NCBI GenBank assembly: GCA_963718895.1
Contig: CAVRAG010000007.1
Span: 480,001 to 544,000, forward strand
Reading direction: 5' to 3'
DNA: 64,000 bases
Source: an uncultured Nitrososphaerota archaeon
Lineage (GTDB): Archaea > Thermoproteota > Nitrososphaeria > Nitrososphaerales > Gagatemarchaeaceae
Each line of letters opens with the position of its first letter. Positions within the stretch are counted from its first letter, which is position 1. This document shows positions 3,274-39,156 of the stretch, in pieces. The translations under genes and the position numbers were made by a program. The notes below the pieces were generated by a model. That model made no database searches. It worked only from the letters and a program-made list of their open reading frames with translations, and had not been told where the DNA came from.

Positions 3274-3390
3274 CGCCGGGAGTGGGATTTGAACCCACGA
3301 CCCCACTAAAGGAGACAGGCTCACTAGCGTGAAAGCTTCCAGGCTTACGCAAACGCTGATCTGCGCCCTTCCAGGCTAGGCGACCCCGGC
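3274..3390 (-). tRNA. tRNA-Ser(GGA) with two introns (29/30 at 3345-3360; 37/38 at 3322-3336)
   Basis: Acceptor stem GCCGGGG/TCCCGGC, discriminator G, long variable arm, GGTTCAAATCC T-arm; removing two BHB-flanked inserts restores CAGGC-CTGGAAA-GCCTG. Confidence 0.9.
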
Positions 3391-33508: not shown

Positions 33509-34096
33509 CTATGGGGAAGTGCATGTCGGAGCATAGCTCGCGGTAATGCCGCAGTAGCTCCAGGCGAAGACTGACCCGTTCGTGGCGGGGAGCTGGTCGG
33601 CGCCGGACTGCGCCACCTCCCATCGCGATGCGCTTCCGTAGGTCCAGAGGAACCACGAGCCCGACCGGGAGTTCTGCAGTCCGTCTATGCCGTTGACAAG
33701 ATGCTCTCCGTATTGCGGGTACCACGTATCATTCAGGTTCCCTCCTGTGACCACGACCGTGGCAAGATACGCGTTCCAGCCTGCCTGCACCGCGGTGTCG
33801 TTGTACCACCTCTGCGTCCCGTTGCCGAAGTCGAGTAGAATGTTGATCGTAGCCACGAACCCCCGCGTCCCGGTCGCAGTCGAAGTCACGGTGTTGGTCA
33901 CTCCACCGCTGACCACGGTGGTGGTTGCCGTCTGGACCGTCGCGCTGGAAGCCTGTTTGAGCTCGCCGAGATACAAGTTGGCGTTGTTCTGGGCCTCGTT
34001 GTACTGGTACAGATAGTAGGCTGCGATCGTCGAGGAAATCAGGATTCCGGCCAGAAGCGCCACGATGATGACGGTGAACGTTCTTGAATCTGTCAA
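33509..34096 (-). CDS. Membrane-anchored extracellular protein (DUF4430-like)
   Basis: N-terminal TM, Thr-rich linker, IDFGNG-type motif (LDFGNGT) and LVNGIDG...WFLW. Confidence 0.7.
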   Translation of the reverse strand: MTDSRTFTVIIVALLAGILISSTIAAYYLYQYNEAQNNANLYLGELKQASSATVQTATTTVVSGGVTNTVTSTATGTRGFVATINILLDFGNGTQRWYNDTAVQAGWNAYLATVVVTGGNLNDTWYPQYGEHLVNGIDGLQNSRSGSWFLWTYGSASRWEVAQSGADQLPATNGSVFAWSYCGITASYAPTCTSP

Positions 34097-34163
34097 GCAG
34101 GCTGGATAATCCAGACAGGTCTTTAAACGTTACATAGGACTGCCGCAGGAGACAGGTCCGAAG

Positions 34164-34628
34164 TTGGCCAAGGAAAGACTTCGGATCGCGGATGCCGGCC
34201 ACAAGGGAAAAGGGGTATTCGCGACCGCAAGGATTGAACCGGGCGAGCTCGTCTGGGATTACGACGGTAAGGAACAGTGGATCTCCGAGATTCCTGAAGC
34301 GCTCTGGCAGTTTGCATTTCAAGTCGACTACGACCGGTACATCGTCCCTGAGAGGGAATCTATCGGCTGGTACCTCAACCACTCGTGCGAGCCGAACTGC
34401 GTCATTCTCGGAAGGACCAGGATAGTCGCGCTGAGCACGATAGAACCCGGAGACGAGGTCACATTCGATTACTCGACGAACGTCGGGTGGGACGGATTCA
34501 CGATGGAGTGCAGGTGCGGGGCACCCGGGTGCAGAAAGGTGGTCCGGAGCTACAGATACCTCAGCCCCGAACTGAGAGGGAGGTACGGAGCGTGCGTCTC
34601 GAGATTCCTCCTCCAGAAAGGGAGCTAG
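34164..34628 (+). CDS. SET-domain protein-lysine methyltransferase
   Basis: GKGVFA, YLNHSCEPN, EVTFDY and post-SET CRCGAPGCR motifs. Confidence 0.93.
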   Translation: MAKERLRIADAGHKGKGVFATARIEPGELVWDYDGKEQWISEIPEALWQFAFQVDYDRYIVPERESIGWYLNHSCEPNCVILGRTRIVALSTIEPGDEVTFDYSTNVGWDGFTMECRCGAPGCRKVVRSYRYLSPELRGRYGACVSRFLLQKGS

Positions 34629-34634
34629 CGAATC

Positions 34635-35396
34635 ATGCAGAAGAGAGCACTCTACTCCCAGTTGGCGCCGTACTACGACAGGATATACTGGGGCAAGGAC
34701 TATGGCAGGGAGGTAGAGTTCCTCGTCGAGCTCTTCCGCAGGAACGGGGTGTCTGGAAGACGCCTGTTGGAGGTCGGCTGCGGGACCGGCAACCACACGA
34801 AGCTCTTCGTTCGCCTAGGATATCAGGTGACCGGGGTCGACCTCAGCGAAGACGTCCTGAAGGTCGCGGCGGGGAAGGTGAGGCACGGCGCGAAGTTCAT
34901 CCGCGGCGACATGAGGGACCTCGGCTCCGCGGTCGAGGGGCAGTTTGACGAGGTCGTCTGTCTCTTCAGCACAATCTCCTACAACCTCACGAGGTCAGAC
35001 CTGAAGAAGACTTTGCGCGGCTTCTTTGACCACGTGACCGACGACGGGATCGTCGCTTTCGACACACACTTCACCAAGAAAGGGTTCCTTGACGGATATC
35101 GTGGCGAGGACATCTTCGATGACGGGAAGGTAATCGGCGCCAGGCTCAGCACCTCGAAGCGCCGCGGGGACATCGGAGAAATCTCCTTCACGTACCTGAT
35201 CAAGGACGGCCGAAAAGTGATTACGCTCAGGGATGACGTGCACAAGCTCGGGCTCTTCGTCCCCGAGGACTTCATTGAGGTTCTCAGAGATGTCGGATTC
35301 AAGACGACGGAGGCGTTCTCGGACTGGAAGTTCAGGAGAGGTAGCAACACCGCCCCATTCAAGGATACGATATTCGTGGGTCGCAAGGGCGATTAG
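34635..35396 (+). CDS. Class I SAM-dependent methyltransferase
   Basis: LEVGCGTG, GVDLS and GDMRD motifs. Confidence 0.92.
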   Translation: MQKRALYSQLAPYYDRIYWGKDYGREVEFLVELFRRNGVSGRRLLEVGCGTGNHTKLFVRLGYQVTGVDLSEDVLKVAAGKVRHGAKFIRGDMRDLGSAVEGQFDEVVCLFSTISYNLTRSDLKKTLRGFFDHVTDDGIVAFDTHFTKKGFLDGYRGEDIFDDGKVIGARLSTSKRRGDIGEISFTYLIKDGRKVITLRDDVHKLGLFVPEDFIEVLRDVGFKTTEAFSDWKFRRGSNTAPFKDTIFVGRKGD

Positions 35397-35476
35397 GCGC
35401 TTCCGGGCGGACGACGACCGACTTGCACCGCAATCTGAAACATACCCTTTTTAGCACGAGTCAGGGATTCGAATTC

Positions 35477-36586
35477 ATGATTTGTCAAACTTGCGGGGCG
35501 CAACTGCCCGATGACGCCTCATTCTGCTACAAATGTGGAACCAAGGTCAACGCGCCCGCGAGCGGAGCCCAACCGGCCCAGGTCGGTTCCCCGGCCCCAC
35601 GGCCGTCGGGGGCACCCTCCTCTCAGAAGCAGGGACAGATAATCGCCCCGTCTGGTGTGACTTCGATCAAGTGCCCCAACTGCGGCGCACCGATCTCCCC
35701 CAAGTTCGGCGAGATGGTGATAACCTGCGAGTACTGCGGGAGCGGTATCACCCTTGGGACCCAAGGCTGGAGCAACATACAGAAGCAGACGATGCTCCCT
35801 CTAAAGATCGCAGACGCGGCTGGGGTGGATGCGATCATCAGGCCCCTCATGGACAAAGGGCTCCTGCACAGGCACCTCGAGGAGAACTCCACCCAAGAGG
35901 AGATGAGCCTCTCCTATGTGCCCTACTGGATAGTCAGCGTCTCGGCGCGCACGACGGTCGTCGCGACCAACGAGGCTGCACAGATCGGCCAGACGGCGAC
36001 CACCGCAGCGCTGATGGGCGTCATACTCGGCGGGATGGGCGGCGGTTTCGGCGGAGGCGGCGCGAGGGGCGGAGGGCGCAGGCGCGCCTTCGACCTGGCG
36101 GGGACGGGGATGTCGAGGTTGCTAGGCGGGGGCGTGGCGCTGGGCAGGTTCTCGGCCTTCGGCATGGGGATGGGATACGGCGGAGGTGGGATGAGAAGGA
36201 CGGAGCAGATGGACGCGAACTACAACTTTCCGGTGATTGCACTGAAGGCTCTCACGGAATACCAGCCGCGGGACTATCTGTTCGATCTCGCAGACAGGAC
36301 CCTCTTTGACATCGCGAAGCTTCCGAAGAGCATCAAGATCCTCAACGGGGACATCAGCGAGGATGTCGCAAGGTCACAGGCGAAGACCCTCGTCGACCAG
36401 CTTCAGTCGGCGAAGGCGCACGCGAAGTATCACATGATCCAGCAGATAAACACGCAATCAGACGTCGGGGATGTCGAGCTTCTCCACGCGCCCATCTGGT
36501 TCGCGAGGTTCGATCACAAGGGAAACAAGATCATCCTCGTGGTCGACGCAAATTCAGGCCGGGTAATCAACAGCCTTGGGTTGTAG
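35477..36586 (+). CDS. Zinc-ribbon protein with Gly-rich hydrophobic insert
   Basis: CQTCG...FCYKCG and CPNCG...CEYCG; Gly-rich central segments. Confidence 0.8.
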   Translation: MICQTCGAQLPDDASFCYKCGTKVNAPASGAQPAQVGSPAPRPSGAPSSQKQGQIIAPSGVTSIKCPNCGAPISPKFGEMVITCEYCGSGITLGTQGWSNIQKQTMLPLKIADAAGVDAIIRPLMDKGLLHRHLEENSTQEEMSLSYVPYWIVSVSARTTVVATNEAAQIGQTATTAALMGVILGGMGGGFGGGGARGGGRRRAFDLAGTGMSRLLGGGVALGRFSAFGMGMGYGGGGMRRTEQMDANYNFPVIALKALTEYQPRDYLFDLADRTLFDIAKLPKSIKILNGDISEDVARSQAKTLVDQLQSAKAHAKYHMIQQINTQSDVGDVELLHAPIWFARFDHKGNKIILVVDANSGRVINSLGL

Positions 36587-36702: not shown

Positions 36703-37785
36703 ATGAAGGCCTCGAGAATCGCGCTCGTGGTCGCCGTGATCGCTATAGCCACCCTGGTGGGCATCTACGCGTTCGACGCTCTACTCGCGCCCTCGACGAA
36801 GTCGACCAGTTCTCTGTGGAGCGGAGCAGCGGGATATCCCATCCAGGTCAGTGGCACCCCAGGAATTGCAGGAGAGCAGTGCTTCAACAGCACCTCGTAC
36901 ATAGTCTGCATCGGAGGCGGAGACGCCAACGGAGGGCCGCGCAGCGAGGTCTACACCTCCTCGGCCATCTCTCCGTCGTCCACCAACGTCACCTTCTGGA
37001 CGAGGGACACGAATGAGTATCCCCAGAGCATAAACGGGCAGTCGTGCGTGGCTTACTCAGGCTACGTCTATTGCGTCGGGGGAACCTACGATGACGGAGG
37101 AGACGACGTCGCCTCAGGCTACTATGCCCAACTGCGCGGCGACGGTGCCGTCGGTGCGTGGGGCCAAACCACGCCCTTCCCCATCCCCATAGACAGCCAG
37201 TCCTGCGTCGCGTCCTCCGGATACATCTACTGTGTGGGCGGGAACAACGAGACCGATGGCAGCAACGTCGACGCCGCCGAGAGCAGTTCGGTCTGGTACG
37301 CCCAGCTCTCCTCTTCGGGCATAGGCCCATGGAGTGCCTCGACGGCCTACCCAGGGGGCATCTACTTCCCTACGTGCTACACCTCGGACGGATTCATCTA
37401 CTGCGTTGGGGGAGCGGACAGCAACGACAACCCCGTGAACACAGACTTCTTCGCGCCACTCTCCTCCGCGGGCGTGGGAGCATGGACACAGACCACGGCG
37501 TACCCAGTCCAGGCGAGCGGTCAGGCCTGTGTCACCTCCTCAGGCGAAATCTACTGCGTGGGTGGCGAAGGGAGCTTGAACACCTACACTGGCGGAGTCT
37601 ACTATGCTTCGGTATCGTCCGGAGGGATAGGAGCCTGGAAGCAAGCCACAGGGTACCCGATCGAAGTCCAGACTGCCTGCGCAATCTCGTCCGGGCAGAT
37701 CTACTGCGTGGGAGGCTTTGATGCCAGCTCCTCAGGGGAGGACAACTCTGTATACTACGCCTCACTCGCTTCGCTCACGCGCTAG
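36703..37785 (+). CDS. Membrane-anchored six-blade Kelch-like beta-propeller
   Basis: N-terminal signal/TM; six repeats of C-x8-C(V/I)GG; W...YP elements between blades. Confidence 0.8.
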   Translation: MKASRIALVVAVIAIATLVGIYAFDALLAPSTKSTSSLWSGAAGYPIQVSGTPGIAGEQCFNSTSYIVCIGGGDANGGPRSEVYTSSAISPSSTNVTFWTRDTNEYPQSINGQSCVAYSGYVYCVGGTYDDGGDDVASGYYAQLRGDGAVGAWGQTTPFPIPIDSQSCVASSGYIYCVGGNNETDGSNVDAAESSSVWYAQLSSSGIGPWSASTAYPGGIYFPTCYTSDGFIYCVGGADSNDNPVNTDFFAPLSSAGVGAWTQTTAYPVQASGQACVTSSGEIYCVGGEGSLNTYTGGVYYASVSSGGIGAWKQATGYPIEVQTACAISSGQIYCVGGFDASSSGEDNSVYYASLASLTR

Positions 37786-37856
37786 CACCGGGTTCACCCG
37801 GGGCGAGTAAGATGGCGACGATCGAGTCTCGAGGACGGCTCTGGGATGGATGGGAG

Positions 37857-37985
37857 CGGGCCCGGTGGGATTTGAACTCGTGGGCGCTGTAGCGCCTCCC
37901 ACGACATGCTGGTTACTCCCACAAGCTCGCTAAGAGCCAGCCGCTTTGGTCGATGTACTCTCTAACCTGGCTGAGCCACGGGCCC
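37857..37985 (-). tRNA. tRNA-Lys(CTT) with three introns (22/23, 37/38, 53/54)
   Basis: Acceptor stem GGGCCCG/CGGGCCC; removing 37946-37961, 37914-37930 and 37877-37897 gives a standard cloverleaf; each insert has a BHB motif. Confidence 0.9.
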
Positions 37986-38115
37986 GCGGACACGCGGCCG
38001 CACGACTGGCAATTAAAGCGTTGCTGACGGCGGGGGTTCCCGGTTTGAGCCCCTACGGTGAGGCTGAGCACGACGGATTATTAACGACCCGGTCGCAGCG
38101 ACGCCGGAAGAAATC

Positions 38116-39156
38116 TTGGCAAAGCTGACCTTCGTCGGGCTGGGGCTCGGAGATCAGGGGGCGAGCATCGCCGCCGTCAATGCGATCACGGAGTCTGACG
38201 TCGCGTACCTCGAGTACTACACCACACCACACGCGCCTCGCCTCCTCCAGGAATTGGAGCGTGCATCAGGGCACCCCCTCACGGTGGTCGACAGGTCATT
38301 CGTGGAGGACGGGAAACGAATCCTGCGGGAGGCAGCGGAGGGGAAGGTCGTGCTCGCGGTCCAGGGAGACCCCATGATTGCGACGACCCATGGCGATCTG
38401 AGGGTCAGGGCCATCACGAACGGAATTGAGACCTCGGTGATCCACGGGACCACCATCGCTGCGGCGGCTGCGAGCGCCAGCGGCCTGCACTACTACAAGT
38501 TCGGCGCGACCGTGACGTTTACCAAAGACAGCGTAAACTATCACCAGCAGGTCTACTCGAGGGTTCACAAGAACCTGCTCGAGGGATCGCATACGCTGCT
38601 CCTTCTGGAGTTCGACACCGAGAGGGGCGAAGGCGCGAGCCCTGCATCGCTGATGGAAGGCCTCCTCGCCGCGGAGAGGAATTTCAAGAGAGAGGTCATG
38701 AGCGAGCGGACCTTCATGCTCGTGCTGAGCAGGGTGGGCACCGAGGGCGAGAGGGTCCACGCTGGGACGATCGGGGAGCTCCAGACGGTCGAGTATGGTG
38801 AGCCCCCCCACGTCGCGATCGTCCCCGGAAGGCTGCACTTCAGCGAGGCCGAGTCGCTCGCCGCGGTCTGCGGGCGGGCACAGGCGGACATCCCAGACAA
38901 TTCAGCGTCGGTGATGAGGACCGCCCAGGTGCTCGTCCCAAGGTACGCTGAAAAGGCTAAGAAGGCCCTCGGGACTGCGAGGGCCACCTTGAAGGAGGAC
39001 CACGACGAACTCTTCGAGAACAGCGAGCTCTACATCAAGGACGCCGAGAGCTTCCTTGCGAACGGGCAGGACGAGCTAGCGATGCTCAGCGTCGGATATG
39101 CCGAGGGGCTGATTGACGCTCTCACTTTCACCGGGAAGATAAAGCTGGACTGGTAG
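38116..39156 (+). CDS. dph5: Diphthine synthase fused to DUF357
   Basis: FVGLGL, GDPMIATTH, GLHYYKFG and HTLLLL motifs; C-terminal YIKDAESFL...GYAEGLIDA. Confidence 0.92.
   Translation: MAKLTFVGLGLGDQGASIAAVNAITESDVAYLEYYTTPHAPRLLQELERASGHPLTVVDRSFVEDGKRILREAAEGKVVLAVQGDPMIATTHGDLRVRAITNGIETSVIHGTTIAAAAASASGLHYYKFGATVTFTKDSVNYHQQVYSRVHKNLLEGSHTLLLLEFDTERGEGASPASLMEGLLAAERNFKREVMSERTFMLVLSRVGTEGERVHAGTIGELQTVEYGEPPHVAIVPGRLHFSEAESLAAVCGRAQADIPDNSASVMRTAQVLVPRYAEKAKKALGTARATLKEDHDELFENSELYIKDAESFLANGQDELAMLSVGYAEGLIDALTFTGKIKLDW

Follow-up and report, generated by a model that had tools for sequence, protein, structure and literature searches.

Three-intron tRNA genes are credited mostly to Pyrobaculum and Thermofilum in one account (PMC3218864), and the published maximum, as given in another (PMC8450103), is that of Pyrobaculum calidifontis, with 71 introns in 46 tRNA genes. 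The latter source gives up to three introns per gene and puts the load at 0.84 introns per tRNA gene in the Thermoproteales versus 0.21 overall. In Pyrobaculum islandicum, for example, the introns of tRNA-Pro(UGG) are located at 25/26, 37/38, and 56/57 (PMC4090602). As described in the same review, archaeal introns are cut after the second base of each of two 3-nt bulges beside a 4-bp helix, the BHB motif, and the two strands of the helix are four bases of the exon, which stop 2 nt short of the 5′ site, and four bases of the intron, which stop 2 nt short of the 3′ site. The review also describes α2β2 endonucleases as cutting relaxed forms of the motif, and ascribes endonucleases of this type to the Thaumarchaeota. 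Multiple noncanonical tRNA introns are on record in both Thaumarchaeota and Crenarchaeota, and the BHB model of tRNAscan-SE 2.0 was trained on Thaumarchaeota, according to PMC8450103. For “Ca. Caldiarchaeum subterraneum”, 13 of the 46 tRNAs are reported to contain introns, and three of them several (PMC3082918).

The gene described here, a tRNA-Lys(CTT) gene with three introns, is located in a 64-kb stretch of archaeal DNA, the whole of which was analyzed and is hereafter called the window. Like the three-intron tRNAs of the Thermoproteales, it combines one canonical intron with two noncanonical BHB introns, placed in the D-arm and the T-arm, in a colinear gene, and it shares its genome with genes for a putative heterotetramer-type splicing endonuclease (EndA) and with many other multi-intron tRNAs. 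It differs from them in its phylum, Thaumarchaeota/Nitrososphaerota, and in its noncanonical sites, 22/23 and 53/54. Unlike the hyperthermophilic Thermoproteales, it also belongs to an acid-soil lineage for which an optimal growth temperature of ~36-40 °C has been predicted (PMC10640624). A further contrast to the Thermoproteales is that recent intron transposition was not seen in its genome, the valine genes excepted. With the Thaumarchaeota and “Ca. Caldiarchaeum”, as these are described, it has in common the broad clade, BHB introns in the D-, V-, and T-arms, and an endonuclease that is heterotetrameric there and predicted to be so here. The endonuclease and the BHB logic are also those of the split and permuted tRNAs reported from Nanoarchaeum, Caldivirga, and Thermofilum (PMC3218864), unlike which the exons of the Lys(CTT) gene are colinear and contiguous. 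Crenarchaeota and Thaumarchaeota have both yielded multi-intron tRNAs before, and the Lys(CTT) gene joins a known phenomenon of which it is an extreme but ordinary example.

The initial annotation had pointed to the Thermoproteales, such as Thermofilum, as the main source of reported triple-intron tRNAs, which are rare; the organism, however, is no relative of the Thermoproteales. The tRNA adjoins a diphthine synthase gene at 38116-39156 (+) with TP_methylase and DUF357 domains, the relatives of which are found in MAGs that bear the labels Nitrososphaerales or Thaumarchaeota. Those with 81-82% identity include “Ca. Gagatemarchaeum stordalenia” and an acidic-soil Thaumarchaeota MAG. By these relatives, the organism is a Thaumarchaeota (Nitrososphaerota) MAG near “Ca. 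Gagatemarchaeum”. The genome comprises 3.13 Mb in 11 contigs, with ~61% G+C and a completeness of 80.5%, and its features fit Gagatemarchaeum, the former thaumarchaeal Group I.1c, as it is described in the literature: a non-ammonia-oxidising inhabitant of acid soil and peat (PMC10640624). Downstream of the 3′ end of the tRNA, the genes at 36703-37785 (+) and 35423-36586 (+) encode a protein with Kelch repeats and one with a zinc ribbon, and the ORF at 33729-34796 has no Pfam match.

Structure of the Lys(CTT) gene and its splice motifs

The gene covers 129 nt on the minus strand of the window, at 37857-37985, and direct reading of the sequence divides it into four exons separated by three introns. 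These features are listed below in the direction of transcription, together with an upstream box and with the second tRNA gene of the window:

38011..38018, minus strand: TATA-like box CTTTAATT, A/T-rich, with its center ~29 nt upstream of the 5′ end of the tRNA
37962..37985, minus strand: exon 1, 24 nt, with the 5′ strand of the acceptor stem, U8, the 5′ strand of the D-stem, and the D-loop, up to G22
37946..37961, minus strand: intron 1, 16 nt, at site 22/23 in the D-arm
37931..37945, minus strand: exon 2, 15 nt, with the 3′ strand of the D-stem, G26, the 5′ strand of the anticodon stem, and bases 32-37 including the anticodon CTT
37914..37930, minus strand: intron 2, 17 nt, at the canonical site 37/38
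37898..37913, minus strand: exon 3, 16 nt, with A38, the 3′ strand of the anticodon stem, the variable loop, and the 5′ strand of the T-stem
37877..37897, minus strand: intron 3, 21 nt, at site 53/54 in the T-arm
37857..37876, minus strand: exon 4, 20 nt, with the T-loop TTCAAAT, the 3′ strand of the T-stem, the 3′ strand of the acceptor stem, and the discriminator G
3274-3390, minus strand: tRNA-Ser(GGA) with two BHB introns, one of 16 nt in the anticodon stem near 29/30 and one of 15 nt at 37/38

The 5′ end of the Lys(CTT) gene is a 7-nt acceptor strand and the 3′ end is its exact complement followed by the discriminator G, while CCA is not encoded at the 3′ end of exon 4. When the exons were joined by their coordinates in a script, the product was 75 nt long and was called as tRNA-Lys(ctt) by ARAGORN, with stems of 7, 4, 5, and 5 bp and zero mismatches. 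All four exons follow each other in order at one locus, and neither trans-splicing nor permutation is required. The DNA around the TATA-like box has 62% G+C.

All three introns fit the BHB motif, with four of four positions paired in the central helix, one G-U pair in two of the three, and two 3-nt bulges. In intron 1, the exon bases GGTT pair with GACC in the intron, the bulges are AG|A and AA|A, and the inner helix has 2 bp. The helix of intron 2 consists of CTCT in the exon, including bases of the anticodon, and GGAG in the intron, and is flanked by the bulges TA|G and TA|A; here, the 5-bp anticodon stem serves as the outer helix, and there are another two weak inner pairs. Intron 3 contains the helix CGTG/CACG, the bulges GG|A and AG|T, and a 5-bp inner hairpin, GGCGC-TACA-GCGCC. 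Introns 1 and 3 lack the outer helix on the exon side and have the inner helix alone. A strict motif (hBHBh′) has an outer helix at both bulges, and a relaxed one (HBh′ or hBH) at one of them; as predicted from the sequence, all three motifs here are relaxed BHB forms, each with at least one outer helix beside a bulge. The initial annotation had proposed one intron in each of three arms, with these lengths, sites, helices, and inner hairpin, and the coordinates, the register of the BHB motifs, and the call of the 75-nt product bore it out in every one of these respects.

Repeats at the junctions make several splice positions equivalent (22/23 = 23/24 = 24/25; 36/37 = 37/38; 52/53 = 53/54), and sliding any of the introns by 1-2 nt leaves the product unchanged. 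The sites 22/23, 37/38, and 53/54 were chosen because the BHB geometry fits only there. Since the three motifs do not overlap, a single structure can accommodate all of them, and the precursor with all three BHBs has a free energy of -39.7 kcal/mol as drawn and -46.1 kcal/mol when constrained. The ensemble probability of the central helix was 0.76-0.93 for intron 1, 0.75 for intron 3, and 0.005 for intron 2, and that of the BHB at 37/38 was 0.002-0.083 across the precursor and the partly spliced intermediates. The MFE fold of the precursor (-57.4 kcal/mol, z = -2.97) pairs the 5′ strand of the anticodon stem with the 5′ end of the 37/38 intron and not within the BHB. The mature 75-nt sequence also fails to reach a clean cloverleaf by free energy alone, and the low probability of the BHB at 37/38 was therefore not taken as evidence against the intron. 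In the orthologs, the 37/38 intron opens with a conserved GCTAGC, which is GCGAGC here (37914-37930, minus strand) and complements the 5′ strand of the anticodon stem, GCTGGC. The hairpin of this type may be an alternative conformation of the precursor, or it may be functionless.

The DNA was scanned with a custom C program, in which a cloverleaf model is walked along the sequence and jumps are allowed only over segments that meet the BHB rule. Two loci were reported in the window, the Lys(CTT) gene and the Ser(GGA) gene. The former had neither mismatches nor G-U pairs and matched all 15 conserved positions, and its score was 90, which is the top score of all loci in the genome, and its 75-nt parse was the sole top-scoring one. 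The Ser(GGA) gene scored 87 with 0 mismatches. Under strict settings, 32 loci in the whole genome had scores of at least 80, and the next best had a score of 66, while the reversed genome yielded 17 loci with a maximum of 72. Under looser settings, there were 187 reports with scores of at least 66 in the genome versus 0 in the reversed genome, and the maximum in reversed copies of the tRNA regions was 60. The Lys(CTT) locus is more than chance.

The unspliced gene was missed by ARAGORN in its default mode, which reported 0 genes in the window, and Lys(CTT) was not recognised in the 129-nt precursor in intron mode. In the latter mode, ARAGORN also miscalls 3274-3390 as a tRNA-Thr(agt) with one 31-nt intron. 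The Rfam library gave no match to the unspliced gene at gathering thresholds, and zero families matched the segment 37600-38250 at E ≤ 10. The initial annotation had anticipated that standard annotation would miss the gene, which is correct as regards ARAGORN and the Rfam tRNA model, and it had described the second tRNA in the window as likewise multi-intron, in agreement with the two introns found in Ser(GGA) by the custom scan.

Orthologs of the gene and probable turnover of its intron sites

Of 22 related loci, 19 were found to have an orthologous tRNA upstream of diphthine synthase. Together with the gene in the window, these 20 sequences give essentially one mature Lys(CTT), and they contain three introns in 7 cases, two in 11, one in 2, and none in 0. 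The introns are inserted at six sites across the orthologs: 15/16, 22/23, 24/25, 37/38, 42/43, and 53/54. All 20 loci have a CTTTAAT- or TAAATAT-type box at the same upstream distance, although the flanks diverge. This A/T-rich box would be an archaeal TATA box and serve as the promoter of the gene.

A BLAST search with the precursor covered 81 genomes of the family from 10 genera, including the genus of the window. Matches were obtained in 77 of the 81 genomes and were end-to-end in 39 of the 81; many of the others represent the generic T-arm end alone. Among the 30 loci listed, 25 gave a precursor and 24 could be parsed, 17 of these with three introns (the window included) and 7 with two. 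A full-length copy with 97% identity is present in another genome of the same genus. Pooling of the sets and removal of identical sequences resulted in 35 distinct precursors, 18 of which hold introns at 22/23, 37/38, and 53/54 and come from the genera g1, g2, g3, g6, and g9. The other distinct orthologs contain one to three introns, including introns at the further sites 15/16, 24/25, and 42/43. Among the 18 orthologs with the same three introns as the Lys(CTT) gene, the central helix is fully paired (4/4) in 16 at the D-arm site, in 18 at 37/38, and in 18 at 53/54.

The exons are nearly invariant across the 35 distinct orthologs, while the inserted segments vary. When 14 of the sequences are aligned, the exons and the two central helices are constant at every base, and the variation is found in the bulge bases and the loops. 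For example, GGAG of intron 2 is constant in 14 of 14 aligned orthologs while its two bulge bases vary, and the CGTG/CACG helix of intron 3 is constant in 13 of 13. In the inner helix of intron 3, which is 98.5% paired, two pairs have changed on both sides, from G-C to A-U. In the D-arm intron, the inner helix differs between genera, with forms such as GAG/CTC, GC-GAAA-GC, and GAGG/CCTC. Overall, 95.2% of 271 alignment cells in the 14 sequences are paired, as compared to 32-53% with slid partners, and three pairs show changes on both sides, a number reached by 5 of 500 shuffles. Judging from this comparison, the BHB structure is maintained in evolution, and the amount of covariation is modest. 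Exons and splice helices that stay constant, loops that vary freely, and introns that are present or absent as a whole together read as the pattern of functional introns and not of a pseudogene.

Proposed processing and rival explanations

The genome contains two ORFs of the EndA family, of 185 aa and 181 aa, both of which match PF01974. The 185-aa protein aligns end to end and without large gaps with 3p1z_B (E 7e-41), and also with 3ajv_B, 2cv8_A, and 2zyz_B, all of which we take to be catalytic α-subunits of crenarchaeal heterotetramers. It retains a His residue that is aligned to an Ala of the 3ajv chain. The 181-aa protein is more divergent and has weak matches, below the cut-offs, to models of the β-subunit. 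A gene for RtcB is also present.

We consider it very probable that the locus is a genuine three-intron tRNA-Lys(CUU) gene, and a probably essential one, that is processed via the standard archaeal EndA/RtcB route. Transcription from its own TATA-box promoter would probably yield a precursor of ~130 nt, in which three independent BHBs would form, at 22/23 in the D-arm, 37/38 in the anticodon arm, and 53/54 in the T-arm. A heterotetramer-type EndA, consisting of α and β, would then cut each 3-nt bulge behind its second base and free introns of 16, 17, and 21 nt, RtcB would join the four exons to the standard 75-nt tRNA, and CCA would be added after the ligation. The transcription, the cleavage, the ligation, and the order of intron removal are all predictions from the DNA. 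The only public RNA sequence found to touch the locus is one assembled contig of 165 nt in a peat metatranscriptome, from a relative, that covers 37835-37914 of the window with 2 differences, and that consists of exon 3, the unspliced intron 3, exon 4, and a 22-nt trailer followed by unrelated sequence. As this contig may represent DNA or precursor, it is silent on splicing.

A different explanation is that the locus is a decaying tRNA pseudogene with accumulated insertions, in which case the cell would depend on another gene for its CUU tRNA, or on Lys(UUU) to read AAG. That neither ARAGORN nor Rfam recognises the locus would agree with this, as would the 80.5% completeness of the assembly and the presence elsewhere of a Lys(TTT) gene, which has two introns and is located at C1:6338-6447, with a duplicate on contig C5. 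We nevertheless rejected it as highly improbable, since the exons fit an intact cloverleaf with 0 mismatches and are close to invariant in the 35 distinct orthologs, from at least five genera, in which the insertions vary; every insertion, moreover, lies within a BHB, and the promoter box is conserved. Another Lys(CTT) gene is also lacking from the assembly as far as ARAGORN with introns, Infernal (28 matches), and the custom scans report, and there is no second copy of exon 1 in the genome at up to 3 substitutions. Such a separate gene is one part of what the initial annotation had put forward as evidence against its own reading; it was looked for and not found, and with an assembly that is 80.5% complete, the uniqueness of Lys(CTT) holds for the assembled part. 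The least credible explanation is an artefact of assembly or binning, for instance a metagenome-assembled genome that contains a chimeric join. The assembly is MAG-like, with 5.4% contamination and duplicated small contigs, but the three-intron architecture recurs in 17 other distinct sequences from separate genomes, the synteny with diphthine synthase is conserved, and the full-length copy with 97% identity is present in a second genome of the genus. The artefact was rejected on these grounds.

Slightly less remote, and still quite unlikely, is that the gene is real but processed in some other way, with sites shifted by 1-2 nt, another route of removal, an obligate order, or a longer D-loop. 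The junction repeats leave intron 1 with three equivalent positions and each of the other two introns with two, the BHB of intron 2 is unfavourable by free energy, and parses with a 12-nt D-loop (77 nt) score equally in five of the orthologs (L003, L007, L010, L017, and L019). However, for all three introns, the sites used here are alone in placing both cuts correctly in the 3-nt bulges, and in the window gene the 75-nt parse has no equal in score. Removal of the three introns at 22/23, 37/38, and 53/54 by EndA remains the reading that we prefer.

Introns across the tRNA genes of the genome and the family

To describe the tRNA set of the genome, a catalogue was assembled from the custom scans, ARAGORN, and Infernal, in which each anticodon and sequence was counted once and duplicated small contigs were dropped. 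By our own, unbenchmarked finder, it contains ~41 tRNA genes and ~57 introns, or 1.4 per gene. There are no introns in 10 of the genes, one in 12, two in 12, and three in 7, so that with the same unbenchmarked finder ~31 of the ~41 genes bear introns and ~19 bear several. The suggestion in the initial annotation that the lineage may be intron-rich is well supported by these counts, and the density is much higher than the 13 of 46 reported for “Ca. Caldiarchaeum”. The seven genes with three introns are Lys CTT, Gly GCC, Phe GAA, Pro CGG, elongator Met CAT, Asn GTT, and Pro TGG, the last with an unsure parse; in addition, Gly TCC was judged by eye, and the number of introns in Pro GGG is either one or two. 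The catalogue of this 80.5%-complete assembly lacks several isoacceptors, such as Asp. A strict search of 45 tRNA regions and 106 extra candidates revealed no gene with four introns.

There is no sign of a recent spread of introns between genes. In an all-against-all local alignment of 54 predicted introns, the top score was 12 versus a null top of 10, and the similarity is no higher than in shuffled sequences except among three Val genes. These genes, with the anticodons CAC, TAC, and GAC (C7:239211-239316, C8:1093118-1093207, and C8:1007770-1007911), share a similar intron of 15-16 nt at site 45/46 in the variable region, of the AGCAG...CGCCAA type, which is the only clear similarity between introns in the genome. 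It probably predates the divergence of the isoacceptors.

A few other loci in the catalogue deserve mention. The tRNA-Trp(CCA) gene at C8:1192303-1192446 contains a 67-nt canonical intron with TGATGA-like motifs; in Euryarchaeota, there are known cases of tRNA-Trp introns encoding box C/D guide RNAs. The tRNA-Pro(GGG) genes at C9:6338-6450 and C11:7941-8052 have either an A1-C72 mismatch or an intron of 13-18 nt after position 1, which restores G1-C72. Small contigs duplicate tRNA loci of larger ones in identical or nearly identical form (C1/C5, C9/C11 together with C3, and C10 versus C8:1603402-1604082), and the loci concerned are Lys TTT, Pro GGG, and Thr GGT plus Leu CAG. These duplicates suggest strain redundancy in the assembly, the contamination of which is 5.4%.

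A cruder and independent proxy, the number of intron-naive matches, supports the intron richness of the family. The Rfam tRNA model gave 18-49 matches, with a median of ~30, in 24 genomes of the family that are at least 94% complete, whereas in the sister family, for which 43 genomes with a completeness of at least 92% were searched under stricter filters, the matches numbered 36-52, with a median of ~40. In two other families of this class, f3 (four genomes) and f4 (one genome), which are 93-99% complete, 25-34 matches to the Rfam tRNA model were obtained versus 36-52 in f2, and these families may be further intron-rich lineages. The MAGs of the Gagatemarchaeaceae are listed with tRNAs for 16-20 of the 20 amino acids by tRNAscan-SE 2.0.5 (PMC10640624, Supplementary Data 9), which means that this tool recovers the tRNAs of the family at least in part. 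The word “intron” occurs 0 times in the main text of that genome paper (PMC10640624), and neither the intron density of the family nor its conserved three-intron Lys gene was found in the searched literature on thaumarchaeal tRNA introns.

More interesting than the single gene is the wider lead, a mesophilic family of soil Thaumarchaeota with an intron load at the level of the Thermoproteales and a turnover of sites within one gene. On balance, we lean towards the view that mesophiles of the Gagatemarchaeaceae type carry ~1.4 introns per tRNA gene, matching the record Thermoproteales, that the architecture of the Lys gene is old, as it is common to at least five genera, and that at least five sites have been gained or lost in this gene. 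In an abundant, uncultured soil family, introns appear to interrupt about three quarters of the tRNA genes, and to do so more than once in nearly half of all its tRNA genes, a load that affects the annotation and the completeness checks of its MAGs and bears on ideas of why tRNA introns spread. If this is true, a sizeable part of the tRNA set of an abundant soil group would be invisible to intron-naive annotation, and the proliferation of tRNA introns would not be peculiar to the Thermoproteales or to life at high temperature. With one to three introns at six sites in one and the same ortholog, the Lys(CTT) genes of the family would form a natural series for the gain and loss of introns and for the specificity of EndA outside the hyperthermophiles.
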